Part shown: positions 9,464-54,500 of the stretch, piece after piece
Numbering within the stretch: the first letter of the stretch is position 1
Layout of the letters: each line of letters begins with the position of its first letter
From: Armatimonadota bacterium
Lineage (GTDB): Bacteria; Armatimonadota; SYMT01
DNA length: 64,000 nt
Assembly: GCA_041690135.1 (NCBI GenBank)
Contig: JAWLHY010000009.1
Span: forward strand, 302,066 to 366,065
Direction: 5' to 3'
Notes under the pieces: generated by a model
What the model saw: only the letters and a program-made list of their open reading frames with translations
Told to the model about the DNA's origin: nothing
The model's database searches: none
Program-made: the position numbers and the translations under genes

Positions 9464-12400
9464 GGCTTCGTCACTGCCTCGTCCAGGTTCAGGAGCACGT
9501 TGGCGACCACGAGGTAGGCCGCCTGCGTGATGGGATCGTCGGCCTTCAGCGTGGGCGCGTTTGCGGTGGTCAGGAGGGCCTTTGCGGCCTCCGGATTGGC
9601 GCGGAAGTCCGCCAGCGTGGCTTCGAAGAGTCGCTCCAGGCGGTCGAGCTCCGGCGCGGCGGGCTTCCGCGCGAGGGTGCGGTAAAAGCCGGCAGAGAGC
9701 CGCTCGCGTGCCTTCGTGGCCTTCTGTTCCAGCATCACCCGCCCCAGCGCTCCGGCCGCTTCCACGAAAGCGGGGTCGTTCAGGGTCACCAGCGCCTGGA
9801 GAGGCGTGTTTGTCCGGATGCGCCGTACCACACAGAACTCTCCGGAGCCCGCGTCGAAGGTCGTTAGCGACGGATAGGGGCTCGTGCGCCGCCAGAAGGT
9901 GTAAAGGGACCGCCGATAACGATCTTCACCCTCGCTGGTTTTCCACTTCAATCCGCTGTAAACGGTTTTCCAGATGCCGTACGGTTGCGGCGGCATCACC
10001 GAGGGTCCGTGCGTTTTCGCGGAGAGCAGCCCCGATACCGCCAGCGCCTGGTCGCGGATCACCTCCGCGGGCAGGCGGAAGCGCGGTCCCCGGCTGAGGA
10101 GCGTATTTGCGGGATCGATTCTCGCCTTTTCGGGCGTGACCTGCCCCGCTTGCCGGTAGGTCGCGGACATGACGATCAGCTTGAGCAGCTTCTTGGTGCT
10201 CCAACCTAGGCCTTCGGCGGGTGTGGGGACTGGGGACTGGGGGCTGGGGGCAGCGTATCGCGTAGTGCGCAATGCCTTGCCGGCGTAATGCGTAGTGCGT
10301 ATTGCATTGCCGGCGTAATTCGTATTGCGTATTGCGTAATCCGAACCCCGGGAACCAGAAGCTGCAGTGGTGCGCGAGGGTCGGGTCTCCCTTGCCCTCA
10401 CCTGCCGCTTGCGGGTACCCGGTCCGCTCCCCTGCGTACTGGTGACCGCTGCGGGTGTGGAGTACATGGAAGCCAGAAAATCCAGCAGGTCCGGGTGCGA
10501 GGGCAGGGTGCCCTGGGTGCCGAAGTCTTCTTCCGTCTCTACCAGGCCGGTGCCGAAGAGACGGGCCCAGATGCGGTTGACGGCGACCCGGGCGGTCAGC
10601 GGGTTCTCCGGCGATACCAGCCACTGCGCCGCGCCGAGGCGGTTCAGGGGGGCGCCGGCGGGCAAGGCGCCGAAGGCGGCAGGGAAGCCCGGAGTGACTT
10701 CTTCGCCCGGGTCCAGGAAGTTGCCGCGCTGGTGGATCTGGGTGAGGCGCTGCTTATCCTTCGGCAGGTCCCGCATCACGGGAGTCTTGGGGACTGCAGC
10801 CTCCAGGGCCGCCCGCTCCTTTTCCGTGGCGGTGATCTGTCGATAGATGCCGGCCGTGGGCTCGTGGCTCTGTCGGAAGGCCTCGTCCAACCGCTTTTGC
10901 ACCTCCTCGGAGCGTTCGGCACGGGGGATCCGGGCCAGGTCCGAATGCGGCTTCAACTCAGCCTTGAGCAGTTCCGGCTCCGCGGCGCTGATGGACAGGC
11001 GGAAGCAGCCATGCTGGAGGTTCGGATAGTTCTGCTGAATCTTGACCACCAGGCGCCCACCGTCGGGCACGGACAGCGGTGTTTTCAGATCGAACACGGC
11101 CACGTGCGCCTGCGCATTCTGCGGCGACCACGCCCACCCGGTGGCGGGATTGCCGTCGATCGCGCCGCCTACGGGCCAGCCCTGCTGCTCGAAATCGGCG
11201 CGGGCATTGACCAGGGCGACGGGCCGGCGCTCTTTGCCATCCTCGGAGACGAGTTCCGCCGTGATCTCGGAGGTCACCACATTCTGGTCGCTGCCGTGTC
11301 GTCCCGGCCCACCGCTGGGGAGGGAGGGGTCCTTCAGGGCTTCCAACCGGAGGGAACGGACCGTTACGCTCGGAAGCGGAAACGTGAGCGTGTAGGTAGA
11401 CTTCTCCGCTTTCGGACCGCCCACCACAAGGGCGCCGTCCGGCCGCGCGTGGAAGGTGGCGCCGGAGCTGCTCTCCGCCCGTTCCTGCCGCAGCGGCGTC
11501 CAGAGGGATTTCGCGGCGAGCTCCTTTTCCCATGTCAGTTGCCGCGCTTCCAAGTCGGGTGCGTCCTGGGCGAACGCCGCGCGCAGCGTCCGGATCTTTT
11601 CATCCAGCTCGGCGCGCCGCTTCATCTGCTCAGGCGTCGGCATGGGTACGGTAGGCGCTTCGTCGAAGCGGTTGGCATCTTCCGACTGGTTGAACAGAGC
11701 GTAGAACCGGTAGTACTCGCGATGGGTGATTGGGTCGTACTTGTGCGTGTGGCACTTGGCGCAGCCCATGGTGAGGCCCATCCACACCTGAACCGTGGTA
11801 TCGACCCGGTCCTTCACGGCCGCAATCCGGAATTCTTCGCGGTCCACACCTCCCTCGGTGTTGGTCATCGTGTTCCGGTGGAACGCGGTGGCGAGGAGCT
11901 GCGAAGGAGTGGGATTGGGGAGCAGGTCGCCGGCGAGTTGCTCCACGGTGAACCGGTCGTAGGGCATGTCCGCGTTGAAGGCGTCGATGACCCAGTCCCG
12001 GTAGCGCCAGATGGTCCGCTGACCATCCTTCTCGTACCCCTGTGTGTCCGCGTAGCGGGCCAGGTCCAGCCACATCCGCGCCCAGTGCTCCCCATAGCGG
12101 GGCGAGGCCAGCAGGCGGTCCACCACCTTCTCGTAGGCATTCGGGCTGCGGTCATTGATGAAGGCTTCCACCTCCGCCGGGGTGGGAGGGAGTCCCGTGA
12201 GATCGAGCGAGACGCGGCGGATGAGCGCGGAACGGTCTGCTTCTGTTTCCGGCTTCAGGCGCGCCTTCTCCAGCCGCGCGAGGACGAACGGATCGATCGG
12301 GTTGCGGCTCCACTCGCGGTTCTTCACCTTTGGCGGCGTGGGGCGGCGGAGTGGGGCGAACGACCAGTGGACGGCGTACGGTGCGCCCTGTTTCACCCAG

Positions 12401-12798
12401 GCGGTCAGCAGTTTCTTTTGCTGAGGCGTCAGTTGGTGGCCGCTGGACGCGGGCGGCATCAGCAGGTTCGGATCCGAAGTGTTGATCCGCGCGACCAGCG
12501 TGCTCTTCTCGGGCTTGCCGGGATCGATGGCCCGGCTGCCGTTCCGGAGTGCGACGGCCCCCTCCCGGGTGTCGAGCCGGAGCCCGGCCTGGCGGGAGTC
12601 GGGGTCCTGACCGTGACACGCGAAGCAGTTAGAAGCCAGGATCGGCCGGATGTCCCGGTTGTAGTCCACGGTCTCTGCCGAAAGTGATGGCTTCGGCGCT
12701 CCGGCCTGGGCGGCATTCAGCGCAAGAAGACCGAGGCCCGGAAGGGCTCCCAGGAGAATGGCTCGGACGGCGCCATGGCTGCGTCGGTGTCTGGTCAT
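9460..12798 (-). CDS. PSD1/planctomycete cytochrome c protein (DUF1549 + DUF1553) with in-frame insert
   Basis: YNRDIRPIL..NCFACHG; WLDLARYADT; CAKCHTH; NPLTARV.VNR.W; TNTPLQAL. Confidence 0.92.
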   Translation of the reverse strand: MTRHRRSHGAVRAILLGALPGLGLLALNAAQAGAPKPSLSAETVDYNRDIRPILASNCFACHGQDPDSRQAGLRLDTREGAVALRNGSRAIDPGKPEKSTLVARINTSDPNLLMPPASSGHQLTPQQKKLLTAWVKQGAPYAVHWSFAPLRRPTPPKVKNREWSRNPIDPFVLARLEKARLKPETEADRSALIRRVSLDLTGLPPTPAEVEAFINDRSPNAYEKVVDRLLASPRYGEHWARMWLDLARYADTQGYEKDGQRTIWRYRDWVIDAFNADMPYDRFTVEQLAGDLLPNPTPSQLLATAFHRNTMTNTEGGVDREEFRIAAVKDRVDTTVQVWMGLTMGCAKCHTHKYDPITHREYYRFYALFNQSEDANRFDEAPTVPMPTPEQMKRRAELDEKIRTLRAAFAQDAPDLEARQLTWEKELAAKSLWTPLRQERAESSSGATFHARPDGALVVGGPKAEKSTYTLTFPLPSVTVRSLRLEALKDPSLPSGGPGRHGSDQNVVTSEITAELVSEDGKERRPVALVNARADFEQQGWPVGGAIDGNPATGWAWSPQNAQAHVAVFDLKTPLSVPDGGRLVVKIQQNYPNLQHGCFRLSISAAEPELLKAELKPHSDLARIPRAERSEEVQKRLDEAFRQSHEPTAGIYRQITATEKERAALEAAVPKTPVMRDLPKDKQRLTQIHQRGNFLDPGEEVTPGFPAAFGALPAGAPLNRLGAAQWLVSPENPLTARVAVNRIWARLFGTGLVETEEDFGTQGTLPSHPDLLDFLASMYSTPAAVTSTQGSGPGTRKRQVRARETRPSRTTAASGSRGSDYAIRNTNYAGNAIRTTHYAGKALRTTRYAAPSPQSPVPTPAEGLGWSTKKLLKLIVMSATYRQAGQVTPEKARIDPANTLLSRGPRFRLPAEVIRDQALAVSGLLSAKTHGPSVMPPQPYGIWKTVYSGLKWKTSEGEDRYRRSLYTFWRRTSPYPSLTTFDAGSGEFCVVRRIRTNTPLQALVTLNDPAFVEAAGALGRVMLEQKATKARERLSAGFYRTLARKPAAPELDRLERLFEATLADFRANPEAAKALLTTANAPTLKADDPITQAAYLVVANVLLNLDEAVTKP
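10207..10470 (-). mobile_element. In-frame repeat-rich insert 1 in the DUF1553 loop (putative mini mobile element)
   Basis: 88 codons between LDFLA and GW versus 6 in the paralog at 21654-21671; three 30-nt units built from TACGCAA-type heptamers plus CCCCAGT heptamers. Confidence 0.7.
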
Positions 12799-12916
12799 CG
12801 GAATTGCAATCGGAGTGCCCGCGGCATGCCTCGGGGCGGTGGACAGGTAGCACGCTTGCGGATAGTGGGAGCTACTGGATCATATCCGCTTAAGGATTGC
12901 CAACAAACTGGCGCTA

Positions 12917-12970
12917 CGGCTGGGCGAGTGAACTCACGTCTACAAAAGGCCAAGCCGGCCTCCGCAGGCT
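12917..12970 (-). repeat. GTAG-type REP-like element, copy 1
   Basis: Closely matches 26868-26921; the reverse strand has GTAG followed by an imperfect palindrome. Confidence 0.7.
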
Positions 12971-13147
12971 AACCCGAACGAAACGATCAATTACTGACGG
13001 ATCCTTAGTTCACCTTCTGGGCAAAGATTCCCCGCCTGAAGGCTTTGCAATTGTGAGGCGGAGACGTGCTGGCCCAGCCCCTCGGAGCGTGAAGTCGGCG
13101 GGTCCCGTAGAACCTCCATTCGCGGGATCGCGCGGGAAAGACTGCCC

Positions 13148-14194
13148 CTACTTCTGAGGCCAGTTCCGGGGAAGCTGCAGAGACCAGACGTCGTTCACCA
13201 GGGGCGAAACGTTTCCGGCGGTCACCCAGAGGCGATCCTTCCAGACGTAGGTGGAGTGCTCGTGGCGGACGGACCATACGTCCTTCGTCACAAGCCGCTC
13301 CCACTGTTCACCGTCCGCCGAGTGCCAGACGTCGTTCCAGTTCCGGAACGGGTGGTTGGACCAGCCTCCCAGCAGCCACATCCGGTTGCGGTAGACGGCG
13401 GCCGAGAACCAGATCCGCGGCTCCCACGGCGCGTGGGCGCGGACCTGGGTCCAGTTCACCCCATCCCGTGAGCGCCATACGTCGTTGAACGCCGCGTACT
13501 TTGGGACGTAGTTCCCCCCGCCGAACACCCACAGGTAGCCGTTATGGGCGAGGGCTCCGTGATAGGCCCGGGGCGCCCAGGGTGCATTGGCCGTAACCCG
13601 CTGCCAGGTCTTACCGTCGCCGGAGGACCAGACGTCGTTCTTGAGGTGGCGCTCGGTGCCGTCGTAGTAGCGCTCCACCCCGCCCAGGACCCACATCTTG
13701 CCCCGGAATACCACGCCCGCCGCGCCCAGCCGGGGGCTCCAGCCTGCGGCCGGGGTTATCTGTTCCCACCGCTCACCGTCGCGCGAGGCCCACACCTCAT
13801 TGCCGGCCGAGGCGTCCGGAAGCCGTCCGTTGTGCCAGCCGCCCATCATCCACATCCGGTTCTTGAAGACCAGCGAGGTCGGCAGGTCGGAGTGCTTCCA
13901 GGGCGCCTTCGCGGTGACGAGATCCCACTTCGCCCCATCGGCCGAGTTCCAGACGTCGCGGGGCGGCTCGCTGAAGGAGTCGAACCAACCGCCCAGGATC
14001 CAGAGCCGGTTCTTGAAGACCACCTCTCCGGATGAATCGCGGGGTTTCCAGGCCGCGTGTTCAGTGACCCGCACCCAGTTCGGCACGGCGTCCGTCGATT
14101 CCGGCTTTGCGGAAGCGGGCGGGGTGTCCGGGATCATCGGGAGGGAGAGCAGGATGAGCGGCAGGACCAGAATCGGACGAGGCAGAGAAGGCAT
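13148..14194 (-). CDS. Kelch-like repeat beta-propeller protein, secreted
   Basis: Repeated W.LGG...NDVW.S.DG..W units; hydrophobic N-terminus. Confidence 0.85.
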   Translation of the reverse strand: MPSLPRPILVLPLILLSLPMIPDTPPASAKPESTDAVPNWVRVTEHAAWKPRDSSGEVVFKNRLWILGGWFDSFSEPPRDVWNSADGAKWDLVTAKAPWKHSDLPTSLVFKNRMWMMGGWHNGRLPDASAGNEVWASRDGERWEQITPAAGWSPRLGAAGVVFRGKMWVLGGVERYYDGTERHLKNDVWSSGDGKTWQRVTANAPWAPRAYHGALAHNGYLWVFGGGNYVPKYAAFNDVWRSRDGVNWTQVRAHAPWEPRIWFSAAVYRNRMWLLGGWSNHPFRNWNDVWHSADGEQWERLVTKDVWSVRHEHSTYVWKDRLWVTAGNVSPLVNDVWSLQLPRNWPQK

Positions 14195-14547
14195 GGAGCT
14201 TCCTTTCAACCCCTCGTTGAGCGGTGGTCGCCGGCTCTCCTCCGCAAGCCCCACGATTGTAGCCGCACCTGCGACCAGGCGACCAACGGTATTACCTGGC
14301 GGTCGCTGGTTCTAGCCGCTGGCCTCCGATGGTGTTTACTTACTGGCTGTCGCGGTCCGCGCAGGATCAGCGTACCAAACGCTTAGGGTGTTAACTCCTC
14401 GAATTTCCCATCCAGTTTGCCCGCATCCTCAAGCCTCTATAAGTAGTCCCCACAGGCTTGCCAATCCCGCTACAGTCACCCTTCGGCTCCCGCGGAAGCC
14501 CGCTCCAGAAAATGCCAACCCGTAGCCGCAACGAGCACAGAGGTTCC

Positions 14548-14601: not shown

Positions 14602-14616
14602 CTGATCCCTAGATGG

Positions 14617-19157: not shown

Positions 19158-20645
19158 CTAGCCCACCAGGTCCTTGATCACGTGCGCCGGTTCGACGCCG
19201 GTGAGCTTCTGGTCCAGGCCCTGGTACTTGAACGTGAACCGGTCGTGGTCCATGCCCAGCAGGTGCAGCACCGTGGCGTGGAAGTCGCGGATATGGACCG
19301 GGTCCTTGACGATGTTGTAGGAGAAGTCGTCCGTTTCCCCGTAGACCTGGCCGCCCCGAGCTCCGCCGCCGGCCATCCACATCGTGTAACAGCGCGGGTG
19401 GTGGTCGCGGCCGTAGTTCTCGCGCGAGAGTCCGCCCTGGGAGTAGATGGTCCGCCCGAACTCCCCGCCCCAGATGATCAGCGTGTCCTCGAAGAGACCC
19501 CGCTGCTTCAGGTCCTGAACCAGGCCCCAGCACGGCTGGTCCACGTCCTTGCACTGGCTCGGCAGGCGCCCGGCCACGTTGGAGTGGGTGTCCCAGTTGT
19601 TGTGGTAGATCTGGATGAAGCGCACGCCGCGTTCGGCCATCCGGCGCGCCAGCAGCACGCTGTGGGCGAAGCTGCCCGCGTTCTTGGCCTCCTCACCGTA
19701 CAGCTTGTAGGTGCTCTCCGGCTCCTTGGAGGTGTCGGTCAACTCCGGCACGCTGGCCTGCATCCGGAACGCGAGCTCGTACTGCTGGATGCGGGTGTGT
19801 GTTTCTTCGTCGCCGACCGTCTTGAAGTTGAGCTGGTTGAGGGATCGCAGCGTGTCCAGCGTGCGCCGGCGGACTTCCGTGGGCACTCCGGGCGGATTGT
19901 TGATGTAGAGGATGGGATCTCCCGCCGAGCGGAACGACACCCCGGCGTGTTCCCCGGAAAGGTACCCGGAGGACCAGAGCCGCGCCGAGATCGCCTGGAC
20001 CTGCTCCTGGTTGGAGGGGCGGGCCACCAGCACCACGAACGTCGGCAGGTTCTGGTTCATCGAGCCGAGGCCGTAGCTCGCCCACGCGCCCAGGCAGGGC
20101 CGGCCGGTGATCTGGTTGCCGGTCTGCATGTAGGTGATGGCCGGCTCGTGGTTGATCGCCTCCGTGTGCATGCTGCGGATGAAGCACATGTCGTCGGCCA
20201 TCTTCGCCGTATAGGGCAGCAGCTCGCTGATCCACATTCCACCCTGCCCGTACTGCGCGAACTTGTACTTGGAAGGCGCGATGGGGAAGCGTGCCTGGCC
20301 GGAGGTCATCGTCGTCAACCGCTGGCCGCGGCGGATCGAATCCGGGAGGTCCTTGTCGTAGAACTCCTGCATCTTCGGCTTGTAGTCGTACAGGTCCATC
20401 TGGGGCGGACCTCCGACCATGTGCAGGTAGATCACCCGCTTGGCCCTGGGCGCGAAGTGGGGGCCGATCGCGCCCGCGACCTTCGCCGCGGCGTCACCTG
20501 CCGCGGGCGCGCCGTTCTTCTGCGCCGCCTCCGCCTCGTGCATGCCGAGGGCGGTGAGGGCCGCCCATCCCAGGGCATTCCCGCCACGGCGCAGGAACTG
20601 CCGCCGCGTTTCCAATCGAACCCATTCTTCTAAATCAGGGTGCAT
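19158..20645 (-). CDS. DUF1501 protein, Tat signal
   Basis: TRRQFL; HMVGGPPQMD; WGGEFGRT; GRDHH. Confidence 0.92.
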   Translation of the reverse strand: MHPDLEEWVRLETRRQFLRRGGNALGWAALTALGMHEAEAAQKNGAPAAGDAAAKVAGAIGPHFAPRAKRVIYLHMVGGPPQMDLYDYKPKMQEFYDKDLPDSIRRGQRLTTMTSGQARFPIAPSKYKFAQYGQGGMWISELLPYTAKMADDMCFIRSMHTEAINHEPAITYMQTGNQITGRPCLGAWASYGLGSMNQNLPTFVVLVARPSNQEQVQAISARLWSSGYLSGEHAGVSFRSAGDPILYINNPPGVPTEVRRRTLDTLRSLNQLNFKTVGDEETHTRIQQYELAFRMQASVPELTDTSKEPESTYKLYGEEAKNAGSFAHSVLLARRMAERGVRFIQIYHNNWDTHSNVAGRLPSQCKDVDQPCWGLVQDLKQRGLFEDTLIIWGGEFGRTIYSQGGLSRENYGRDHHPRCYTMWMAGGGARGGQVYGETDDFSYNIVKDPVHIRDFHATVLHLLGMDHDRFTFKYQGLDQKLTGVEPAHVIKDLVG

Positions 20646-20897: not shown

Positions 20898-23800
20898 TTA
20901 TTTGTTCAGGACCTCGTCGAGGTTCATCAACTGGTTGGTCACCATTGTCCAGGCGGCGAGTAGCTCCGGCTGGATGGAGGCGTCGGCCTTCGACTCGCCC
21001 ACGGTGATGAGTTGGACCGCGTCCTTGGCCTGCGACTTGTAGTAGGCCTCCAGGTCCGCCACGCTCTTTTTCACGACGGTCATCTCCTCCGGCCGGAGCG
21101 GCCGCGCCAGCAGGCGCAGGGCCAGGAAGTTGACGCGGCTCTCGACGGTGGCCCCGCCCTCTTTGAGCGCCCGCTGCGCCAGGTGGCGCGCCGCCTCCAC
21201 GAACTGCGGATCGTTCAGCGTCACCAGCGCCTGGAGCGGGGTATTGGTGCGCTCCCGGCGGACGGTGCACGTCTCGCGGCTCGGGGCGTTGAAGATGTCC
21301 ATGGAGGCCGGCGGCGCGCTCCGCTTCCAGAAGGTGTACATGCTCCGCCGGTAGAGGTTCTCGCCGGTGTCGCGGCGGTAGTCCCGGGTGTTGCTCCCGA
21401 TCATCGCCACCGCCTCCCACACGCCTTCCGGCTGGTACGGCTTCACGCTTGGCCCCCCCAGCTTCGGCACCAGCAGCCCGCTCGCGGCCAGGGCGTAGTC
21501 TCGGATTACTTCAGCGTCCATCCGGAACCGGGGCCCGCGGGAGAGAAGCCGGTTCGCCCGGTCCTTCAGGCGCTTCTCCGGCGTGGTCACCGCGGACTGC
21601 CGGTACGTGGCGGAGGTCACCAGCAGCTTGAAGAACTTCTTCACGTCCCAGCCGCCTTCGCGGAACTCCACGGCCATCCAGTCCAGCAGTTCCGGATGCG
21701 AGGGCAGTTCGCCGGTGATGCCGAAGTCGCCCGTCGTGGCCACCAGACCCGTGCCGAACAGCTCCTGCCAGAAGCGGTTCACCGTCACCCGGGTGGTGAG
21801 GGGGTGCTCCGGCAGCAGCAGCCACTTCGCGAAGCCCAGGCGGTTCTTCGGGAAGTCCGGCGGCATTGCGGGCAGGATGTCGGGCGTATCCGCCTTCACC
21901 GGGTCCTTCCGCTGGTCGTACTCCCCGCGGAACAGGATGTACGCCATGGCCGCCTCGTTCTTCTCGTTGGCCACGTGCGCGATGGTGCCGCGGGCGCGGA
22001 TGTTCCGGTCTTCGCTCTCGAGAGACGTCAATTTCGCCGCGATCGGCTTGTACTGGTCGTCCAGCGCGGGGAGCCACCAGTTGAACAGCTCGTCCTTCTC
22101 CTTGGGAGAAAGCTGCTTGGCGCCTCGCGAGGCGAGCCACGCTGCCCGGGTGCCGCGCATCACCTGCTCGACCTCGGCCTCGGAGAGGCTGCGGTCGTAG
22201 AGGCGGATGTCGTGCACACCCAGGTTCTCGATGTGCGAGGTGGTGTGGCGCTGGGCGATCTTGAGCGGGACCTTCGTTCGGATGGTGCTCTTCAGCGCGT
22301 TCGCCTGGGCATCGTGCGGCTTCGGTTCTCCGTCGACGTAGATCTTCACCGAGTCCGGCTTCGCGCCGCCGTTGTAGGTGATCGTGACGTGGTACCACTG
22401 GTTGGCGCGGAGCCGGTCGCGCATCACCACCTTCAGGGCGTCCTCGGGCCACTTGTTGATGATGTGCGTCCCGATCCGGTTGCCTTCCACCCACAGGTCC
22501 CACCCGCGGAAGTCATTCTGGTCGTCCATCCGCGCGATGATGGCGCCGCCGGTGCTGCCGGAGGGAAGCCGGACCCAGGCCGAGCAGGTGAAGCCCTGGT
22601 CTTTCTCGAAGTCGCCGGCCTCAGGGATCTGCACGTCCGCTCCCGGCTTGCGCTGGAATGCGCGGCCCGCGACCTGCCCGGCGATCCACCCGGGATCCCC
22701 GGCGGCGGTGAGCTTGACGGCCCGGCCGTCGACCGTGACGTTGAGGTCCTTGCCCTTGCCTTCGTCCAGCGGCGCGTGGAAGCGGAGGCCGTTCTTCGGA
22801 ATCTGGGCCGTCACCGCGAGGGCGCTGGCGCCGTTCAGCCACTGTTCGAAGTCGGCGCGGGCGGCCTGCTTGCGGGCGTCGGACTGCATCCGGACTGCCT
22901 GCAGCTCCTTCTGGAGCGCATCGAACCGCTCCCGGTCTTCGGGCTTGGGCACGGCGATGATCGGCGGCGTGTCCTTGATGTTGCCGTCCATGGCGCCCTG
23001 CGTCGTGTTATTGAAGAAGGCCGCCATCTCGTAGAACTCCCGCTGGCTCAGCGGGTCGAACTTGTGGTCGTGGCACGTCGCGCAGCCGGCGGTGGCGCCC
23101 ATCCACACGGCCGCGGTGGTCTCCGTGCGGTCCCGGGTGTAGAGGACCAGGTACTCCTCCGGGATTACCCCGCCTTCGTTGGTGGTGATGTTGCACCGGT
23201 TGAAGCCAGTCGCCACCAGTTGGTCCACGGTCGGCTTGGGGAGCAGGTCGCCGGCGAGCTGCTCGATGGTGAACTGGTCGAACGGCAGGTTCCGGTTGAA
23301 GGCGCGGATCACCCAGTCCCGGTAGGCCCAGATTTCGCGGTAGTTGTCGAAGTGGATGCCGTGCGTGTCTGCGTAGCGGGCGGCATCCAGCCAGTAGCGG
23401 CCGCGGTGCTCGCCCCAGTGCGGGCTGGCCAGGAACTTATCGACGAGCTTCTCGTAGGCGTTCGGGCTCTTGTCTTTGACGAACCGCTCCACGTCGGCGG
23501 GGTCCGGCGGGAGGCCGGTCAGATCGAGGCTAAGCCGGCGCGCCAGGGTCCGGCGGTCCGCTTCCAGCGCCGGTTTCAGCCCAGCCGCCTCGAGCTTTGC
23601 CAGGACGAAGCGGTCGATCGGGTTCCGGGACCACTTCTTATCCTTGACGGCCGGCAATGCGGGTCGGGTGGGGGGGATGTACGACCAGTGTCGTTCGTAG
23701 GTCGCGCCCTGGGCGATCCAACGCTTGAGGGTATCGATCTGCTGGGCCGTCAGCTTCTTATGCGAGCTGGGCGGCGGCATCAGCAGGCTGGAGTCCTTGG

Positions 23801-24194
23801 TGATCAGGCGCGCTACCAGGGCGCTCGCGTCCGGCTTACCGGGAACGAACACGCTCCGGGCCAGCGCATCCTCGCGCCGGTCCAGCCGGAGGTCCGCTTT
23901 CCGGGCCGCGGAGTCGGGGCCGTGGCAGGCAAAGCAGTTGTCGGCCAGGATCGGGCGCACGTCGCGGTTGTACTGCACGGTGCCGGCACCCGGTTTTGCA
24001 TTACCGCCGCCGGCCGGTTTGGCACCTGCCTTGCGGGTGGGCGCTGCAGCCTGGACCGGCGCCTTCTTCGTTTGCGCGGTCTTAGGAGGTGCGGCCGGTG
24101 CCGCCTCCGACCACATCGCCGCGGCGAGCGGTACCAGCGTCACGGCGGCCCAGCCGAAGGTCTTTCGATAATGGCTTCTGTTCCGGTTGCTCAT
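20898..24194 (-). CDS. PSD1/planctomycete cytochrome c protein (DUF1549 + LamG-like + DUF1553), no loop insert
   Basis: CFACH, CATCHDH; LamG-like WYHVTITY...IRLYDRSLS; HPELLDWMAVEFREGGW. Confidence 0.92.
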   Translation of the reverse strand: MSNRNRSHYRKTFGWAAVTLVPLAAAMWSEAAPAAPPKTAQTKKAPVQAAAPTRKAGAKPAGGGNAKPGAGTVQYNRDVRPILADNCFACHGPDSAARKADLRLDRREDALARSVFVPGKPDASALVARLITKDSSLLMPPPSSHKKLTAQQIDTLKRWIAQGATYERHWSYIPPTRPALPAVKDKKWSRNPIDRFVLAKLEAAGLKPALEADRRTLARRLSLDLTGLPPDPADVERFVKDKSPNAYEKLVDKFLASPHWGEHRGRYWLDAARYADTHGIHFDNYREIWAYRDWVIRAFNRNLPFDQFTIEQLAGDLLPKPTVDQLVATGFNRCNITTNEGGVIPEEYLVLYTRDRTETTAAVWMGATAGCATCHDHKFDPLSQREFYEMAAFFNNTTQGAMDGNIKDTPPIIAVPKPEDRERFDALQKELQAVRMQSDARKQAARADFEQWLNGASALAVTAQIPKNGLRFHAPLDEGKGKDLNVTVDGRAVKLTAAGDPGWIAGQVAGRAFQRKPGADVQIPEAGDFEKDQGFTCSAWVRLPSGSTGGAIIARMDDQNDFRGWDLWVEGNRIGTHIINKWPEDALKVVMRDRLRANQWYHVTITYNGGAKPDSVKIYVDGEPKPHDAQANALKSTIRTKVPLKIAQRHTTSHIENLGVHDIRLYDRSLSEAEVEQVMRGTRAAWLASRGAKQLSPKEKDELFNWWLPALDDQYKPIAAKLTSLESEDRNIRARGTIAHVANEKNEAAMAYILFRGEYDQRKDPVKADTPDILPAMPPDFPKNRLGFAKWLLLPEHPLTTRVTVNRFWQELFGTGLVATTGDFGITGELPSHPELLDWMAVEFREGGWDVKKFFKLLVTSATYRQSAVTTPEKRLKDRANRLLSRGPRFRMDAEVIRDYALAASGLLVPKLGGPSVKPYQPEGVWEAVAMIGSNTRDYRRDTGENLYRRSMYTFWKRSAPPASMDIFNAPSRETCTVRRERTNTPLQALVTLNDPQFVEAARHLAQRALKEGGATVESRVNFLALRLLARPLRPEEMTVVKKSVADLEAYYKSQAKDAVQLITVGESKADASIQPELLAAWTMVTNQLMNLDEVLNK

Positions 24195-27080: not shown

Positions 27081-30000
27081 ATGTCCAATTTCAATAAGTC
27101 TCACCGGCACTCCCGCTCCTGGACGGCGGCCATAACCCTGGCCACGCTCGCCGCCGGCTCTACCCTCTCCGGTCTCGCCGCCCCGCAGAACGGGACTAAA
27201 GCCGCGGCCGTTTCCCCGAAGCGCCAACCAGCGCAGACCATTTCGAAGGCTCGACCAACGCGCGCCGCGACTGGACCCAAGGGTTCGAATACACAACACG
27301 CAGCACGCAATAAGCAACCCAACGCCCAACGCCCAACGCCTAACGCTCAACCCGTCCAATACAACCGCGACATCCGCCCCATCCTCTCCGACAACTGCTT
27401 TGCCTGCCACGGTCCGGATAAGAACACGCGGATGGCGAACCTCCGGCTGGACCTGCGGGAAGAGGCCGTGAGGCACGGGGCGCTCGTTCCCGGCAAACCG
27501 GACGCGAGCTCGCTTATCGCCCGCATCAATTCTGCGGACGCGGACCTGTTGATGCCGCCGGTCGCCTCCCACAAGAAGCTGACCCCGGCGCAGAAGCAGC
27601 TTCTCCGGCGCTGGATCGCGGAGGGGGCGAAGTACGAGGCACATTGGGCCTACACGCCCATCCGCCGACCCGAGATCCCGAAGCTAACGGACCCCCGCTA
27701 TGCCTCCCGGAACCCGGTCGATGCCTTTGTCCGCGAGAAGCTGGCGGCCCGGAAGATCCTGCCCTCGCCGGAAGCGGACCGCCGCACGCTGCTCCGGCGC
27801 GTCTACCTGGACCTGACCGGACTGCCGCCGACTCCGGAGGAGGTGCGGACCTTCCTCGAAGACCGTTCTCCGGATGCCTACGAAAAGGTCGTTGACCGGC
27901 TCCTGGCTTCCCCGCACTTTGGGGAGCGGATGGCGGCGCCCTGGCTGGACGTGGTGCGTTACGCCGATACGGTGGGCTTTCACGGAGATCAGAACCAGAA
28001 CGCCTGGGCCTACCGGGACTACGTGGTCGATTCGTTTAATCGGGACAAGCCGTTCGACCAGTTCACGATCGAGCAGATCGCGGGGGACTTGCTGCCGAAC
28101 CCCACGCCGGAACAGTTGAGCGCCACCTGTTTCAACCGGCTGACGATGATGACGCGGGAGGGGGGCGCCCAGCCCAAGGAGTACCTGCTGAAATACCAGG
28201 CGGACCGGGTGCGCACCGTCGGCATGGCGTGGCTGGGGGCGACCCTCGGCTGCGCCGAATGCCACGACCACAAATTCGACCCGATCAGCCAGAAGGACTT
28301 CTATTCCCTCTCCGCATTCTTTGCGGACATGCGTCAGTGGGGGGTCTACGCGGACTATTCCTACACCCCCAACCCGGATCTGCGCGGCTACAACAACGAC
28401 TACCCGTTCCCGCCGGAGATCAAGGTGCCGAGCCTCTACCTGAAGGAGCGCATCCGGAAGCAGCGAGCCCGGATCGAGGCGATCGCGCTCGGGACCGAGG
28501 CGGATCTCCGCGCCGAAGCAGCCCGGAAGGCCTATGCGGAATGGCGCGCGGGTGCGGTCGAGTTCTTGACCCGCAACCCCGAGGGGTGGGCCGTGCCGGC
28601 GCCCGAGGCCATGGCCACCCTGGTGAGGGCTCCGAAGCTGAAGCCGGGGGAGAAACCGCCCACCCCAACAGTTGATGTCGCAGCCGACGGAAGCATCCGG
28701 CTGGCGGACCCGCGTCCGGCTCACCTGGAAGTGAGGCTGCGCCCGGAAATCCGCGGTGTGGCGGCGGTGCGCCTGGAGCTACTTCCGGACGCGGCCAATG
28801 GTGGCTCCATCTTCCGCCCGGAGGTGGAGAGCGCCACGCTGATGTTATCCGCGACCGTCACCCGTGGGGCCGGTAAGCCGCAGTCGGTCTCCTTCCGGCA
28901 TGCCGGGGCCAACATCGCCGAGCCGCGGTACCGCAGCGGGTTCGAAATCGTCGGCGTGCACGGCGGCTGGAAGCTCGGCGCGAAACAAGCGTCCGAGCGG
29001 CACGTATCGGTCTGGTTGCCGGCGGTTCCGCTGAGCCTGGCCTCCGGGGACGTGCTGACGTTCAGCCTGCGTGACCTGAAGGCGGCCAGGATCCGGTTTG
29101 CGGTGTCCCCCTTCGTTCCGGACGATCCGGACTCTCCGGCCTTTCCGCCTAACCTCAAAGAGGCGCTCGAGAACCCGGTCTCACCGGCTGGGAAGACGCT
29201 GGCCCTCCGTAGTTACCTGCTTTCCACTGCGTGGAACAAGGCGGCTTTCGAGGGCGCAGCGGCGGCGGAAGCCGACTTGTTCGCCTGCCGGGACGGGATC
29301 ACCCCGGTGATGGTTACCGAAGCGACCGAGCCGATGACCATCCGCCTGCTGCCCCGCGGCAACTGGCAGGATGAGAGCGGGCCGGTCGTCCAGCCGGCGG
29401 TCCCGGCCTTCCTCCCCGGCTACCGGGCGGATCCGGGCCGGCGACTGAACCGCCTCGACCTGGCGAAGTGGCTGGTCTCCCCCGAGAACCCGCTCACGGC
29501 GCGCGTCTTCGTGAACCGCCTCTGGAAGCAGTTCTTCGGCAACGGCCTCTCCGGAGTGGTGGAGGACCTCGGCGCCCAGGGTGAATGGCCCACGCATCCG
29601 GAGTTGCTGGACTACCTGGCCTCTCGTTTCTCCGCGCCGGCTTCGGTGAGCAGCGCGCGAGGGAGCAAGGGTGAAGGGGGCAAGGGGGAACCGAGTAACT
29701 CGAACCGGTACGGCTTGGCAGGACGCAAGGGCGCCGGGGGAAAGGGGGAAAGGGAGATCCAAACTTTGCGCACCGTAGCAACTTCTGGTGCTCTGGGTTC
29801 GGATTACGCAATACGCAATACGCAATACGGGTTTGCGTGGCGCATCAAGCCCCTGGTCAAACTGATCGTGACCAGTGCCACCTACCGGCAGTCGTCCAAC
29901 TTGCGGGCGGAGCTGCTTGAGCTCGACCCCAATAACCGCCTCCTTGCGAGCCAGAACCCGCGGCGGCTGGAGGCGGAGTTCGTGCGGGACAACGCTCTCG

Positions 30001-30589: not shown

Positions 30590-32038
30590 ATGAGCCAATC
30601 AATGAACAGAGAGAAGTTTGCACAGGAGATCACCCGCCGGGCTTTCCTCCAACAGTCCGCCTACGGGCTGGGCGGGCTCGCATTTGGGTCCCTGCTGGGG
30701 CGTGGGGCCGAGGCGGCTCCCGCGTCCGGACCGACGACAGGCGGCGGCGTGATCAGCCAGCCGCACTACCCGATCCGCGCGCGGCGGATCATCCACCTCT
30801 GTATGGCCGGCGGGCCCTCCCAGTTCGAAAGCCTGGACCCGAAGCCGGAGCTGAAAAAACTTCATGGCCAGCCCTTCCCGGAGTCGCTCACGAAAGGACA
30901 GCAACTGGCGCAGCTACAAGGCGCGAAGTTGATGGCCCGCGGTTCGTTCGTCGATTTCAAGCGGTGGGGGAAGTCCGGCCAGGAGATCTCGGAGCTGTTC
31001 CCGCACATTGGCGGTATTGCGGACGACCTCTGTATCATCCGCTCGATGGTCACGGAGCAGATCAACCACGACCCGGCCCAGGCGTTCATGAACTCCGGCT
31101 CGATCTTGAAGGGTCGCCCCAGCATGGGCTCGTGGCTGCTCTATGGGCTGGGTACCGCGACCCAGGACCTGCCCGGCTTCATCGTGCTGGTTTCCCAGGG
31201 GCGGGCGGGCGGTGTGCAGCCGGTATCCGCCCGGCAGTGGTCGAGTGGCTTCCTGCCCGGTAAGTTCCAGGGGGTGCAGTTCCAGACGCGCGGCGATGCG
31301 GTCCACTACGTGGGCAACCCGGACGGGGTCTGCCAGAGCCTCCAGCGCCTGGTGGTGGAGGAGATCCAGCGCCAGAACGGACTGCTCGCCGCGGAGCGCC
31401 TCGACCCGGAGATCCAGACCCGCATCGCGCAGTACGAGCTGGCGTTCCGGATGCAGGCCAGCATCCCCGAGTTGACGGATATGTCGAAGGAGCCGAAGCA
31501 CGTCCTGGAAGATTATGGCGTGAAGGAGCCGGGAGACGGATCGTTCGCCTCGAACTGCCTCCTGGCGCGGCGGCTGGCGGAGCGCGGCGTGCGGTTCATC
31601 CAGCTCTACCACCGGGCGTGGGACCACCACAGCGGGATCGAGCAGAACATGCCCAGCGCGGCGAAGGAGACCGACCAGGCCAGCGCGGCCCTGGTGCGCG
31701 ACCTGAAGCAGCGGGGGATGCTGGACGACACCCTCATCCTGTGGGGCGGCGAGTTCGGCCGCACCCCGATGGGGCAGGGGAGTGGGCGCGATCACCATAT
31801 CTACTCGTTCAGCCTCTGGATGGCCGGCGGCGGGGTCAAAGGCGGCATCACTTACGGCGGCACCGACGAGCTGGGGTACCGTTCCGTGGAGAACGTCGTT
31901 ACCTTCCACGACCTCCACGCCACTATGCTCCACCTCTCCGGCATTAATCACGAGCAGTTCAGCGTGAAGTTCCAGGGCCTCGACGCGCGCCTCACCGGGG
32001 TAGAGCCGGCCCGGGTCGTCAAAGAGATTCTGCAATAA
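30590..32038 (+). CDS. DUF1501 protein, Tat signal
   Basis: TRRAFL; MAGGPSQ; WGGEFGRTP; GRDHH. Confidence 0.92.
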   Translation: MSQSMNREKFAQEITRRAFLQQSAYGLGGLAFGSLLGRGAEAAPASGPTTGGGVISQPHYPIRARRIIHLCMAGGPSQFESLDPKPELKKLHGQPFPESLTKGQQLAQLQGAKLMARGSFVDFKRWGKSGQEISELFPHIGGIADDLCIIRSMVTEQINHDPAQAFMNSGSILKGRPSMGSWLLYGLGTATQDLPGFIVLVSQGRAGGVQPVSARQWSSGFLPGKFQGVQFQTRGDAVHYVGNPDGVCQSLQRLVVEEIQRQNGLLAAERLDPEIQTRIAQYELAFRMQASIPELTDMSKEPKHVLEDYGVKEPGDGSFASNCLLARRLAERGVRFIQLYHRAWDHHSGIEQNMPSAAKETDQASAALVRDLKQRGMLDDTLILWGGEFGRTPMGQGSGRDHHIYSFSLWMAGGGVKGGITYGGTDELGYRSVENVVTFHDLHATMLHLSGINHEQFSVKFQGLDARLTGVEPARVVKEILQ

Positions 32039-49946: not shown

Positions 49947-50038
49947 TTCCGAGAGCTAAGCATTCGCGAGTAGAACTGGGAGATGCGTCTGAACTGCGTT
50001 GCCCGCCTGGGGATACCAACTTCCACTTCCCTTCCTCT

Positions 50039-50071
50039 TCTTTGCGTCTTCGCGTCTTTGCGCGAGATTCC
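50039..50071. repeat. Dispersed octamer repeat (TTTGCGTC type), copy 2
   Basis: tctttgcgtcttcgcgtctttgcgcgagattcc, matches 19093-19126. Confidence 0.65.
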
Positions 50072-50076
50072 ATTCC

Positions 50077-51165
50077 CTACGGCGCGGGTTGGCGCAAGTC
50101 CAGCGTCCGGATCGGTCGCAGCTCCTTCCCCTTGAAGCCTTGGAAGCCCGGCACGTCCAGTTCCGTGAAGAGGATCCCGCTCGGCGTGCCTTCCTGCCCG
50201 TCGGCGGTGATGTAGAGGTCGTTCATGTTGCGTCCACCGAAGCAGACGTTCGTGGGGCCGTAGGCAGGCGTCGGCACCGTGCCGAGGCGACGTCCTTTGG
50301 GGGTGAACACTTCGATGCGCCGGCCGGAGAAGTTGGCGATGTAAACGTTCCCCATCTTATCGATCGTGAGCCCATCGCCGATCCCGCTATTCTCCAGGAA
50401 GCAGAACTCCTTTGGGTCGTCGAGCATGCGGTCCGGCTTGGGAAGGCGGAATTGGAGCACGTTGTGCCGGGTTGACTGGACCACGTAGAGCCTCTCGCTT
50501 TCGGGGTCGACCTCGATGCCGTTGGGGTAGTAGAGGCCGGTGGCGATGCGGTCGACTTTGCCGTCCGGGGTCAGGCGCATGATCCAGCCGTTCGGCTCAC
50601 CGTTGTCGCAGTTGGCCGGGTCGGTCCAGTAGATGATGCCGCGGTCATCCATCGTAAGATCGTTCGTCAATCGGAGCGGCTGTCCGTTCCAGGAGTCGGC
50701 AAGAACCCGCACGGATCCGTCTGGGGCCAGGTCGAGGATCCGATGGCCGCGGTTGTCCGTGCAGATGTAGTGGCCGTCGCGCCGCCGCAGGATACCGGAA
50801 GCTCCCACGTTAAGAAAGGAAACGGCCCGCGGGCCCTGGTCTCCGGGAACGACGCGCTGAATGCCGTCGCCGCAGAAGAGCACTCCGTACCGGTGGTGCC
50901 ACACCGGTCCTTCCACGTGCCCGGGGTGGGGGGCCAGGAGGACCGGCTGTGCCTTCTCGAGGCGCCGGGCGACCTCTTCGCGCGGCAAGCGGTCCTGCCG
51001 GATGAAATCGAGGTGCTGGTAGTCGCGGAAGATGCCCCCGGGGATGCGCAGTGGTTGGGGTACGCGTCCCGCGGCCGCCGCTCCTCCCGGTGCTGCCTGG
51101 GAAACAGCCGCAATCAGACCCATGATGGCCGCCGCTAGAAATGCTTTTCTTCGAATCGGTGCCAC
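50077..51165 (-). CDS. SMP-30/gluconolactonase family protein
   Basis: EGPVW, NDL..D, PNGI, DGLTID and TNVCFGG motifs. Confidence 0.9.
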   Translation of the reverse strand: MAPIRRKAFLAAAIMGLIAAVSQAAPGGAAAAGRVPQPLRIPGGIFRDYQHLDFIRQDRLPREEVARRLEKAQPVLLAPHPGHVEGPVWHHRYGVLFCGDGIQRVVPGDQGPRAVSFLNVGASGILRRRDGHYICTDNRGHRILDLAPDGSVRVLADSWNGQPLRLTNDLTMDDRGIIYWTDPANCDNGEPNGWIMRLTPDGKVDRIATGLYYPNGIEVDPESERLYVVQSTRHNVLQFRLPKPDRMLDDPKEFCFLENSGIGDGLTIDKMGNVYIANFSGRRIEVFTPKGRRLGTVPTPAYGPTNVCFGGRNMNDLYITADGQEGTPSGILFTELDVPGFQGFKGKELRPIRTLDLRQPAP

Positions 51166-51539
51166 GGTTCCATACTCCCTTGTCCCGGCGTTCTCGACCG
51201 CCTCGTGCGCTAAACCCTCTTTCCCCACCCTTAGTTCTACTACTCCCAGCCTGAGTCGCCCCGTTTCACCCAGAGACCGCAATAGGGAAGCCGGCCGTGG
51301 GTGAACTCGTCCCGACCTGTCCCCAAAACGCTGCATGGATGTTGTGTGAAGGCTTCCTACCGCAACCCCAGCGGATACCCGTTGTCTATTTCAGGTACAC
51401 CATGGGGTTCTTGCGCCGTCGTTCTGGTGCGCATCGGAAACCCGCGCAGGCCTACGCCCGGAGGGGTGTAAGCCTGGCAGATAAGTTTGGCCATTTGAAT
51501 GCCGGAAAACAGGATGCCGAGGACGGACGGAGACGGAGC

Positions 51540-54500
51540 GTGAAGAACAGGCAAGTAGGGATCGGCATTGCGGCTCTTATCGCCGCCGGCACGGCAGTAG
51601 GCACGGCGGCGGCCCCCGGACCTCAAAAAGACCCACCTCCCGGGAAAACGGCCTCGCTCCCCGGAGCCGCGACTCGGTTCGCTCCCGAAGCGGTCGAACA
51701 CTTCGAACGCCACGTCCGTCCGCTCTTGCTGGACAAGTGCTACAACTGCCACTCCTCTCTCACTAAAGAGCCGATGGGCGGCCTCCGGCTGGACGGCCGG
51801 GATTTCCTTCTCAAGGGCGGCAAGCGAGGCCCGGCCGTGGTTCCTGGAAGTCCTGAGAAGAGCCTCCTGCTCCGGACGGTCAATCACACCGCGCCCGGCC
51901 TCGCGATGCCTCCGAGCGGCAAACTCACCGCCGCCCAGATCGCCCACCTCACCACCTGGATCAAAGCCGGTGCTCCATGGCCCGCGGCGGTGGCCGTAGT
52001 TCCGAGTGGGAAGTTCCGAGTTCCGAGTAAGGGACGTGCCAACTCGGAACTCGGAACCAGGAACTCGGAACAGTCTTCAGTCCACTGGGCTTTCCAGCCC
52101 GTCCGCAAGCCTGCAATCCCGGTGGTGAAGAACCGGTGGTGGGTGAAGAGCCCGGTCGATGCCTTTGTCCTGGCGGAGTTGGAGAAGAAGGGGCTCAAGC
52201 CGGCTCCCGCGGCGGACCGGCGCACCTTGATCCGCAGGGCAACCTTCGACCTTACCGGTCTCCCGCCGACACCCGCCGAAGTGGCGGCGTTCGTCAACGA
52301 CCGGAGCCCGGATGCGTGGGAGAAGGTCATCGATCGTCTACTGGCGTCGCCGCGGTACGGCGAGCGCTGGGGGCGGCGGTGGCTGGACGTGGCCCGTTAT
52401 GGCGACTCGAACGGGCTGGACGAGAACCTTTGCTTTGCCAACGCGTGGCGCTACCGGGATTATGTGATCGACGCCTTCAACCGGGATAAGCCGTTCGACC
52501 GCTTTGTCCACGAACAGATCGCCGGCGACCTCTTGCCGGCCACGGGGAATGAGGCGGAGGACCAGGCCCGGGTAATCGCCACGGGTTTCCTGGCGTTGGG
52601 CCCCAAGATGCTCGCTGAGGACGACCCGGTCAAGATGGAGATGGACATCATCGACGAGCAGCTCGATACGCTCGGCAAGGCGTTCATGGGTCTCACACTC
52701 GGCTGTGCGCGGTGCCACGACCACAAGTACGACCCGGTATCCCAGAAAGACTACTATGCTCTGGCCGGGATCCTGAAGAGCACGAAGACCATGGAGAACT
52801 TCTCCGTGGTGGCCAGGTGGCACGAGAACGTGTTGGCCTCCCACGCAGATCAGGAGCGGTTGAAGGCCCACGAACAACGGATTGCGGAACGGAAAAGTGA
52901 GCTCAAAGCCCGGACCGAGGAGGCCAATACTACTTTCCTGGCGAGTGAGCGGCGCAAAGCTTCCCGCTATCTTCTGGCGGCCACGCAGCTTCTCCGGCAG
53001 GGTGAGGTGAAGCTGATGCCCGTCGCGGAGGTGCCCAGCCGGCTCAAGGCGGGGGCAACCCAGGTCATCGAAGCCGAAGACTACGTGCGGGGGAATGTCC
53101 GCAAGGACCGGTCCACTTACGGGGCCGGGATCGGCGTGCTGGTGAACCAGGGGCAGTATCCCAACTTCACGGAGTACGAAGTCACCGTTCCCGCTGCTGG
53201 ACCGTACCAGGTCGATCTTCGCTATGCCGCGGCGGAGTCCCGTTCGGTGCGGCTGCTGGTGAACGGCGCGCTGGTTAAGTCCGACGCTGCCCGGCAGGTC
53301 ACGGGGAGCTGGATGCCGGAGGGGCAAAAGTGGTTCGCGGAAGGGGTCTTCACCCTCCGGGCGGGGAAGAACGTCCTTCGCCTGGAGCGGGTGGGGCAGG
53401 CGCCTTTCCCGCACATCGACAAACTCCTGGTGGCGGCGAGTAACCCCCCCGGCGGAAATGATATGCCGGTTACTCCGGAACAACTGGCCCAGGAGCGTGA
53501 ATTGAGCCTGGCGCTGCTCCACCAGTGGACCACGTACCTGCGACGGACCCAGGGAGACCCCGCGTCCGTTCTGGCTCCCTGGCACCGGCGGGCCGGAACT
53601 CGCACCGGGGCGGATCAGCCGGGAGTGGCGGATACCCTGTTCAGTGACCCCTCCTCGCTTTCCCTCGATGCGCTGGCCGACCGGTATCAACTGGCCTGGG
53701 AGGCCGCCGAGGGCGAGTGGCGGGAGCTCCGGAAGGCGGAGCCGGATGCAAAGATGCTGAAAGACCCGGCGCGCGAGGCGCTGCGACAGGTGCTCTACGC
53801 CGCCGAGGGGCCCTACGCGCTGCCGTCTCCGCAGGAGTTCCAGCATGCCCCCACGACCGAGCGGGAGCTGAAGCGGTTGGCGGCCGAGATCCAGGTGTTG
53901 GAGAAGTCCCGGCCGGAGCTTCCCCGCGCGCTCGGCGTGCAGGAAGGAAAGCCCACGGACCTGCGCGTCCATCTGCGCGGCAACTACCTCACCCTGGGCG
54001 AGGAAGCGCCACGGGGCTTCATCCACGCCATCTCCCGCGGCGTGCCAAACTTGCGCGAGGCCACGTCCCAGAGCGGTCGCCTGGAGTTGGCACGCTGGTT
54101 GACCGCTCCCGAAAACCCACTCACGGCCCGGGTCATCGTCAACCGTGTCTGGCTCGGCCACTTCGGCGAAGGTATCGTCCGCAGCCCCGACAACTTCGGC
54201 AAACTCGGCGAGCGCCCCTCGCACCCCGAGCTTCTCGACTGGCTGGCCTCTGTGTTTTCCGGATCGGGTGAGTTCACCACGACGCAGAAGCGCAAGGGGG
54301 GACCGAGCAACTCGAACCGGTACGGCTTGGCAGAACGCAGGGGCGCAGGGGCGCAGGGGGAAAGGGGGATCCGAACTTTGCGCACCGTTGCAGCTTCTGA
54401 TTCCCAGGGTTCGGATTACGCATTAAGCAACGCGCATTACGCATCCGGCACCAGTCCCCGACCCCTGACCCCCGACCCCGCCGAAGGCATGGGCTGGAGT

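Follow-up and report, generated by a model that had tools for sequence, protein, structure and literature searches.

In-frame repeat inserts at one loop of PSD1 (DUF1553) paralogues in an Armatimonadota bacterium: a permissive site probably homogenised by gene conversion

In several soil and aquatic phyla, pairs of PSCyt/PSD1 and DUF1501 genes rank among the largest protein families whose function is unknown. Four large open reading frames (ORFs) with this type of domain architecture lie in a stretch of 64,000 nucleotides (nt) of an Armatimonadota bacterium (assembly GCA_041690135.1, contig JAWLHY010000009.1, positions 302,066 to 366,065), here called the window. Three of them carry long in-frame inserts at an identical position in PSD1 (DUF1553), where the fourth has a loop of only six residues. 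The source genome, designated G000 (9.1 Mb in 25 contigs, about 65% G+C, with the window on contig 9), holds an insert at this site in about 41 of 77 scorable PSD1 domains. The most probable explanation, held with moderate confidence, is that a permissive disordered loop was colonised by dispersed short repeats and then homogenised between paralogues by ectopic gene conversion.

All four proteins in the window contain PSCyt1, PSCyt2 (DUF1549) and PSD1, with Pfam matches above the gathering score (E-values of 1e-82 to 1e-98 for PSD1 and PSCyt2, and of 1e-14 to 1e-16 for PSCyt1). The spacing between the conserved motifs HPxLLDxLA and (G/A)W amounts to 88, 6, 71 and 81 codons in host genes 1 to 4, always in frame and free of stops, and both the translations and the DNA reproduce the lengths, coordinates and open frames of the original prediction exactly. 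In the three insert-bearing proteins the Pfam match to PSD1 is broken in two at profile position 64/65 and restarts at position 65, whereas in host gene 2 it runs as a single stretch (profile 1-242). Because Pfam splits the long-loop proteins and not the short-loop one, the family model lacks the insert and its consensus is the short loop. Inserts 2 and 3 align without gaps at 115 of 131 nt (29680-29810 against 54292-54422), and the match of 39 of 43 nt between inserts 1 and 3, as well as their common cccgccgaaggc end, also holds when checked by eye. The 16 differences between inserts 2 and 3 are distributed as 3, 8 and 5 over codon positions 1, 2 and 3. Three codon differences are synonymous, as previously counted, and 13 are non-synonymous within the 45 enclosing codons; the earlier figure was 11 altered residues among 43. 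Both inserts contain the whole of a 114-nt core, of which insert 1 retains the 3' half only.

The window is a small sample of a genome-wide pattern. A scan with a hidden Markov model finds 78 PSD1 ORFs in the source genome, including the expanded ones, 36 with a loop of exactly six residues and one that is cut by a contig end. The model was built from short-loop paralogues and its alignment mis-parsed some long loops, which were corrected by regular expression. A six-frame regular-expression scan recovers 42 ORFs with the flanking motifs, 36 of them with loops of 12-135 residues, and two more were added by eye. The insertion point always separates residues 3 and 4 of the canonical loop, for example SVF|...|EGL-GW. 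The truncated domain (C14:235193-235741) retains only profile positions 77-261, so that its contig ends in or beside the loop, and this break suggests that the repeats disrupt assembly.

As mosaics, the inserts combine G-tract and C-tract repeats with a period of 7-8 nt, heptamer arrays headed by GGTTCS, and the 114-nt core. The left module reads (S/A)PATVTxTQG, and the G-tract repeats are translated as GSKGAG or GARGQGPGA. The core itself reads NRYGLAERRGA..KGAGE...LRTAAASDPRGSxYAIR and ends in GGGGTTCGGA, after which a (TACGCAA)n array begins. The right module, placed ahead of AEGL, consists of C-tract heptamers read as SPQPPTPGP. Alternative fillings also occur, such as (TCATCCT)n, read as SSFILHPSSF, and (CAATTGT)n, read as QLSIVNS.

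A second expanded site has been found in the PSCyt2 loop AFLAECEAE[...]KARAKLIDRLL of a related subfamily, where four full copies and one partial copy of the core lie in the same frame. Of 46 matched ORFs, 32 have 15 residues in this loop, between ...AF and LLxxPxY, and ten have 47-102 residues with various repeats. Searching the genome with the window inserts by blastn, as had been proposed, returns more than 20 further copies, which places the similarity far beyond chance. The core is present in 16 copies of invariant length, 12 in PSD1 loops and four in PSCyt2 loops. This one protein family has about 46 copies, all of them stop-free and with lengths that are multiples of three.

Comparison with other genomes indicates that the loop is an old hypervariable region. 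The same PSD1 site is expanded in two further genera of the same bacterial family, designated G005 and G002, with different sequences. In G005, inserts of 53-71 amino acids (aa) occupy 19 of 50 fetched PSD1 domains and follow the same layout with different repeats. Octamers translated as TERQRDGETE come first, then a core (VRTAA...GS) with a fixed length of 64 or 54 nt, and then FIPHPSSFIP or LSPSLRPSVSPS. Five inserts of a second type (L054, L061, L062, L066 and L068) have (GACAGAGA)n to the left of the core and its reverse complement, (TCTCTGTC)n, to the right. By eye, these octamer arrays form a long inverted repeat of tandem units, as distinct from unique termini. In G002, some 14-16 PSD1 domains are split at the identical profile position; the ten parsed inserts span 28-59 aa, are of plain low complexity, start with xxFSSP and have no repeats in common. 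A BLAST search with the core DNA in 40 relatives yields a single 29-nt heptamer match.

The inserts do not follow the phylogeny of their hosts. In host trees, short-loop genes, insert-bearing genes and repeat types are interleaved, and the identity of cores (53-87%) is uncorrelated with that of the host proteins (31-60% aa; Spearman 0.12, p=0.40, 55 pairs), a result that supports the original interpretation. A joint tree contains 25 sister pairs of G000 and G005 genes (SH-like approximate likelihood ratio test, SH-aLRT, of at least 90), in which the insert is found in both members nine times, in neither five times, only in G000 ten times and only in G005 once. In three of the ten G000-only pairs the G005 loop is 8-12 aa long, and where both orthologues have inserts the sequences are genome-specific. 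Host gene 1, for instance, has a G005 orthologue (L063) with a 60-aa insert of unrelated sequence. The empty site of host gene 2 is shared by its orthologue L074, which has the loop VDFREG (SH-aLRT 100). The closest relatives of host gene 3, namely a G002 gene on contig C378 (63-71% aa identity) and L077 of G005, are without insert 2, and the former matches host gene 3 in two target segments that lie just 6 nt apart. For host gene 4, the nearest relatives in the tree are short-loop genes, yet the best G002 match has a 28-aa insert, and the history of its insert appears ambiguous when judged from these relatives. Contigs from a soil-metagenome run (share 0.07) contain PSD1 genes of other organisms that diverge at 54247/54248 into apparent six-residue loops, and a 151-nt metagenome contig covers 54401-54548 with seven differing letters. 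Neither observation was counted for or against any explanation.

The evidence for gene conversion comes from the DNA that adjoins the site. Twenty-four G000-G005 pairs were compared over the flanking 63 nt, with the G005-only pair left out. Over the rest of the PSD1 domain the G005 orthologue is the closest relative in 23 of 24 pairs. Within the flank it is the best match in three of the five pairs in which both loops are empty, in none of the ten discordant pairs and in none of the nine in which both carry inserts (0 of 19 insert-bearing pairs). In all nine of the latter, the best match is instead another insert-bearing G000 paralogue. The residue three positions before the site varies in a related manner: in G005 it is Y or F in 18 of 18 insert rows that lack W, and W occurs in 13 empty and two insert rows, while in G000 Y or F is present in 29 insert and four empty rows and W in eight insert and five empty rows.

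Delimited tracts of similarity are also visible in individual pairs. Two genes on contig C11, 10 kb apart, have about 450 nt in common, including both flanks, with host proteins that are 45% identical. The G005 genes L054 and L061 share the loop and about 100 nt of right flank, with a single difference in the 54-nt core. Of the 120 core pairs, the two with the highest similarity are both neighbours, located 10 and 25 kb apart. Such homogenised flanks and delimited tracts, as read from the aligned sequences, are the signature of ectopic gene conversion, which would place inserts at the same site, in the same frame and in the same orientation without a homing enzyme. In inserts 2 and 3, the common tract (150 nt at 86%) extends between G-tract repeats and the ACGCAAT array, wholly within the insert. 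It stops short of the conserved flanks, contrary to the proposal of copying through them. The broader claim of spread by site-specific insertion, conversion or homing is borne out in part: conversion between paralogues is visible, but a single discrete element with defined ends that homes into an empty site is not, because the loop, present in three or more genera, is old and hypervariable, and several kinds of repeat make up the mosaic inserts.

Several observations weigh against this explanation. The flank comparisons rest on 63 nt in paralogues that are not independent of one another, convergent selection acting beside long loops could look like co-conversion, and the tracts were read from pairwise alignments. 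The PSCyt2 loop has unrelated flanks, and the arrival of the composite there requires at least one non-homologous event. In addition, 16 units of head plus heptamers lie outside the loops, so that some route of dispersal other than conversion between paralogues exists. Finally, the 16 cores contain no indels despite a mean divergence of 31%, and core residues G4, L5 and G10 are retained through synonymous changes, which hints at constraint beyond neutrality.

The jump to PSCyt2 and the genome-wide scatter of headed heptamers are left unexplained by conversion, and for this reason a non-autonomous mobile element is kept as an alternative, although it is judged unlikely. Such an element, similar to the Rickettsia palindromic elements (RPEs) or to cyanobacterial small repeats, would insert de novo with a preference for the loop or for heptamer arrays, and would survive only where it is in frame and free of stops. 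The presence of the same composite in the same frame at two unrelated sites is consistent with this model, as are the fixed core lengths (114 nt in one genome, 64 or 54 nt in the other), the dispersed GGTTCS-headed arrays, the confinement of the window-pair tract to the insert between repeat arrays, and the ten orthologue pairs in which G000 alone has an insert. However, a dispersing element should be mostly intergenic, and all blastn matches of at least 60 nt to the composite lie in PSD1 or PSCyt2 loops, with none between genes. In G000, the left side of an insert often consists of G-tract repeats and the right side of C-tract repeats, but the inserts are mosaics of variable length in which no terminal inverted repeats, target duplications or fixed ends were seen by eye, no dedicated scan for terminal inverted repeats having been run. 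No stable or conserved fold is found either. None of nine Y1_Tnp-like genes, the only transposase family searched, has a period-7 array within 1-1.5 kb, and no further blastn copy adjoins a transposase. The homogenisation of flanks along with the insert also argues against transposition, and conversion is inferred to be the main route by which the inserts spread.

The substitution pattern of the core is that of DNA rather than of a protein under selection, in agreement with the original prediction. Over the 16 ungapped cores, the mean pairwise difference is 0.31 and is nearly even across codon positions (0.308/0.295/0.328), as is column conservation (0.794/0.801/0.789). The ratio of non-synonymous to synonymous differences per site (pN/pS) is 0.73, compared with 0.88 +/- 0.13 in a column-shuffled null, and reaches 1.10 in the window pair and 1.07 in the closest pair. 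As a control, the host domain was compared in 24 orthologue pairs; its pN/pS is 0.37, at a pS close to saturation. The inserts evolve essentially neutrally.

These values bear on the idea that the insert is a selected protein feature, such as a flexible linker or a short linear motif (YGL...R.G...T.A...GS.Y). Apart from the retained residues and the lack of indels, this idea draws on 11 columns that are invariant in eight aligned copies, on the recurrence of the RTAA...GS motif in G005 cores and on the identical frame of every copy. It is nevertheless considered quite improbable, given the equal differences at the three codon positions and the pN/pS values set out above, which exceed one in the two closest pairs. 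Orthologous loops of other genera are unalignable, 36 paralogues and the Pfam model keep the six-residue loop, and the loop is predicted to be disordered.

The prediction of disorder comes from an AlphaFold2 model of the PSD1 domain of host 4 (a 373-aa construct with 53 aligned homologues; mean predicted local distance difference test, pLDDT, of 79). Residues 73-139 of the construct, between helices 57-68 and 149-157, have a pLDDT below 50 and no secondary structure, and form the sole long low-confidence coil, which lies inside insert 3. The site at profile position 64/65 is thus predicted to be a permissive disordered surface loop between two PSD1 helices. A fold search of the PSD1 model against the PDB gives no match at E<=0.001. 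No protein among 5.8 billion (711-2263 aa) matches residues 988-1062 of host 4 at E<=0.01; low complexity may hide matches, and the result is not taken to show that homologues are lacking.

At the RNA level, the three window inserts show no excess fold stability against shuffled sequences (z = 0.16, 0.87 and -0.94). The consensus fold of ten cores (RNAalifold) has no covariation support, with a covariation term of +0.52 and double changes in two of 18 pairs. A candidate TCCGAAC/GTTCGGA pairing was dropped, since its left arm varies in other copies without compensation. In consequence, the structural part of the proposed analogy to RPEs fails, as no palindrome or hairpin was detected.

The original prediction had left open whether the insert is translated as a disordered loop or removed from the RNA. 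The first is preferred, with translation of the loop inferred, and removal from RNA is unlikely because the reading frame is kept open in every copy. Excision after transcription or translation, as by an intron or intein, has nothing to recommend it beyond the precise in-frame position, and is hardly credible. The window has no Rfam match other than a 5S rRNA, the core has no conserved fold, and the inserts (12-135 aa of low complexity) are far below intein size. If the RNA were trimmed, nothing would explain why all of the roughly 46 copies lack stops and have lengths divisible by three. By a rough estimate, a random 240-nt stretch of this composition combines the two properties with a probability of about 0.04 per insert.

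The building blocks of the inserts are widespread in the genome. Exact tandem arrays of at least three units number 127 for period 7, compared with 20 for period 5, 53 for period 8 and six for period 9, and 95 of the 127 lie outside long frames rich in G+C at third codon positions (GC3). A GGTTC(G/C) head is found on 29 of 48 (TACGCAW)n arrays, 16 of these 29 being the units outside loops mentioned above, and before 20 of the 127 heptamer arrays of all families, compared with 2.1% as background. The head GGGTTC(C/G) is common to arrays of different units, namely (TACGCAA)n, (CAACCTT)n, (CTGCCTT)n and (TCATCCT)n; the same head also precedes G005 heptamers of other units, and headed arrays in the window are located at 29795-29830 and 54405-54425. 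G-quadruplex motifs reach 6.9 per kb in 36 loops, compared with 0.174 per kb genome-wide, and the G-tract units, typically four, fit this motif and are candidate quadruplexes.

Seven is not a multiple of three, and slippage of such heptamers could in principle switch paralogues off and on, as in contingency loci. Exact arrays of 3-5 units do occur inside many PSCyt/PSD1 ORFs, and about 18-20 of the 32 arrays in long GC3-rich frames belong to this family, as judged from flanking peptides. Phase switching is still a very unlikely role, as the arrays are short and imperfect and, in this assembly, none of the 78 PSD1 ORFs is interrupted at the loop, apart from the half-domain cut by a contig end.

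Taken together, gene conversion acting on a colonised loop would have proceeded as follows. A subset of PSCyt1-PSCyt2-PSD1 paralogues in this bacterial family would have gained an in-frame low-complexity extension long ago. In G000 the extension would then have been colonised by genome-dispersed G- and C-tract repeats and GGTTC(G/C)-headed heptamer arrays, and a 114-nt composite of repeats and unique sequence would have been copied among at least 16 loops by ectopic conversion. Tracts that include the conserved host flanks would give empty paralogues an insert at the exact position and frame, other tracts would end at repeat arrays within the insert, and the inserts would be translated as a disordered loop that drifts neutrally. 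The repeats themselves presumably promote recombination. A bolder version, suggested by analogy and rather doubtful, is that the G- and C-tract arrays form G-quadruplexes that start recombination; they might then act as a hotspot of conversion that propagates itself, invades empty paralogues and diversifies about 40 surface loops without any element-encoded enzyme.

Coordinates of the features discussed (positions of the window unless a contig of the source genome is given)
Feature	Position	Strand	Basis
Host gene 1, PSCyt1-PSCyt2-PSD1, 1112 aa	9460..12798	-	Pfam
Insert 1, 88 codons	10207..10470	-	translation + DNA
Insert 1, left module SMYSTPAAVTSTQG			
Insert 1, 3' half only of core	~10333-10375		
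Insert 1, degenerate ACGCAAT-type heptamers	~10251-10340		
Insert 1, C-tract heptamers	~10211-10250		
Host gene 2, canonical empty site	20898..24194	-	Pfam
Canonical 6-codon loop VEFREG	21654..21671	-	translation + DNA
Host gene 3, 1174 aa	27060..30584	+	Pfam
Insert 2, 71 codons, without C-tract right module	29622..29834	+	translation + DNA
Insert 2, 114-nt core copy (NRYGLAGRKG...GSDYAIR), then (TACGCAA)n array	29703..29816	+	
Host gene 4, 1293 aa as listed, putative GTG start	51297..55178	+	Pfam
Insert 3, 81 codons	54249..54491	+	translation + DNA
Insert 3, 114-nt core copy; four G-tracts at ~54340-54369; GGTTCGGATTACGCA head-array junction	54315..54428	+	
Insert 3, C-tract heptamers (agtcccc gacccct gaccccc gacccc), read as SPRPLTPDP	54453..54479	+	by eye
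DUF1501 partner of host 1	7907..9463	-	
DUF1501 partner of host 2	19158-20645	-	
DUF1501 partner of host 3	~30650-32038	+	
DUF1501 partner of host 4	~55220-56683	+	
5S rRNA gene, 87.9 bits	63595-63711	-	Rfam
Expanded PSCyt2 loop (example)	C2:476250-476700		
Expanded PSCyt2 loop (example)	C3:825600-826050		
Expanded PSCyt2 loop (example), YGLAERxGA module in three tandem copies	C3:987650-988150		
Expanded PSCyt2 loop (example)	C10:328150-328600		
Expanded PSCyt2 loop (example)	C1:887900-888400		
Y1_Tnp (IS200/RAYT-type) match	C11:209659-210000		
Y1_Tnp (IS200/RAYT-type) match	C1:627841-628185		
Y1_Tnp (IS200/RAYT-type) match	C2:54557-54895		
Y1_Tnp (IS200/RAYT-type), six weaker matches			

A DUF1501 gene follows each of the four host genes. 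The partner of host 1 spans 447 residues over 389 profile positions, compared with 414-427 in the other three, and may have a small insertion of its own. Peptides of the heptamer type are also visible by eye in other linkers of the hosts, namely NAQRPTPNAQP in the N-terminal linker of host 3 (~27330-27370) and RANSELGTRNSEQ in host 4 (~52035-52080). Exact (GCCCAAC)n and (TCGGAAC)n arrays, whose units are those of these linker peptides, occur elsewhere in the source genome.

These results define a mapped permissive loop, predicted to be disordered, that tolerates from 6 to 135 residues, which is useful for tagging and for the interpretation of structure models. They also provide a natural example of how non-coding short repeats may enter proteins, through a tolerant loop, read-through and subsequent spread between paralogues by conversion; read-through is possible because the heptamer arrays are open in all frames. 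The outcome, inserts at the same site that resemble homing, should be expected when paralogues are scanned for "mobile inserts" or "mini-inteins". The scale is notable, with dozens of copies in one family and replication in other genera, and if the repeats promote conversion, they would link bacterial repeats of the G-quadruplex type to the evolution of gene families.

A literature search, with supplements excluded, found no description of inserts or in-frame repeats in DUF1553/DUF1549 genes, and the closest comparisons are with repeats and conversion systems of other bacteria. RPEs are palindromes scattered through intergenic DNA and many unrelated genes, and in Rickettsia they are reportedly inserted in frame in ORFs. 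The inserts described here are similar in being repeats of 100-250 nt that are conserved as DNA, lie in frame in protein genes at a surface position, show no clear protein constraint and are presumed to be translated. They differ in that they have no palindrome or stable fold, that the composite occurs only in two loops of a single family of paralogues and that its spread appears tied to conversion of the flanks. In Nostoc, small dispersed repeats are said to be nested in heptamer arrays and to lie inside genes. The GGTTCS-headed arrays would resemble these, in a different phylum and with different sequences, and the resemblance serves as a lead only.

G-quadruplex-forming GGGNATC repeats have been described in Xanthomonas and Nostoc (Rehm et al. 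2015, PMC4692102). The heptamers of the present genome are similar to these and to the short tandem heptamer repeats of cyanobacteria (STRR): heptamer arrays are over-represented, about four G-tract units fit the G-quadruplex motif, and most arrays lie outside genes, 95 of 127 being outside long GC3-rich frames. They differ in that they cluster within a single coding loop of one gene family, where they are joined with unique sequence and copied as a unit. The pattern also corresponds to the concerted evolution of paralogues, in which paralogues are closer than orthologues over a short tract, neighbours exchange most and, in this case, G-quadruplex motifs are located at the segment itself. In Neisseria, conversion between pilE and pilS is reportedly initiated by a G-quadruplex. 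Unlike that system, the PSD1 family has no silent donor cassettes and no sign of programmed variation; instead, about 40 full-length genes of the expressed type seem to exchange a neutral loop, in which a role for G-quadruplexes is suggested by analogy.

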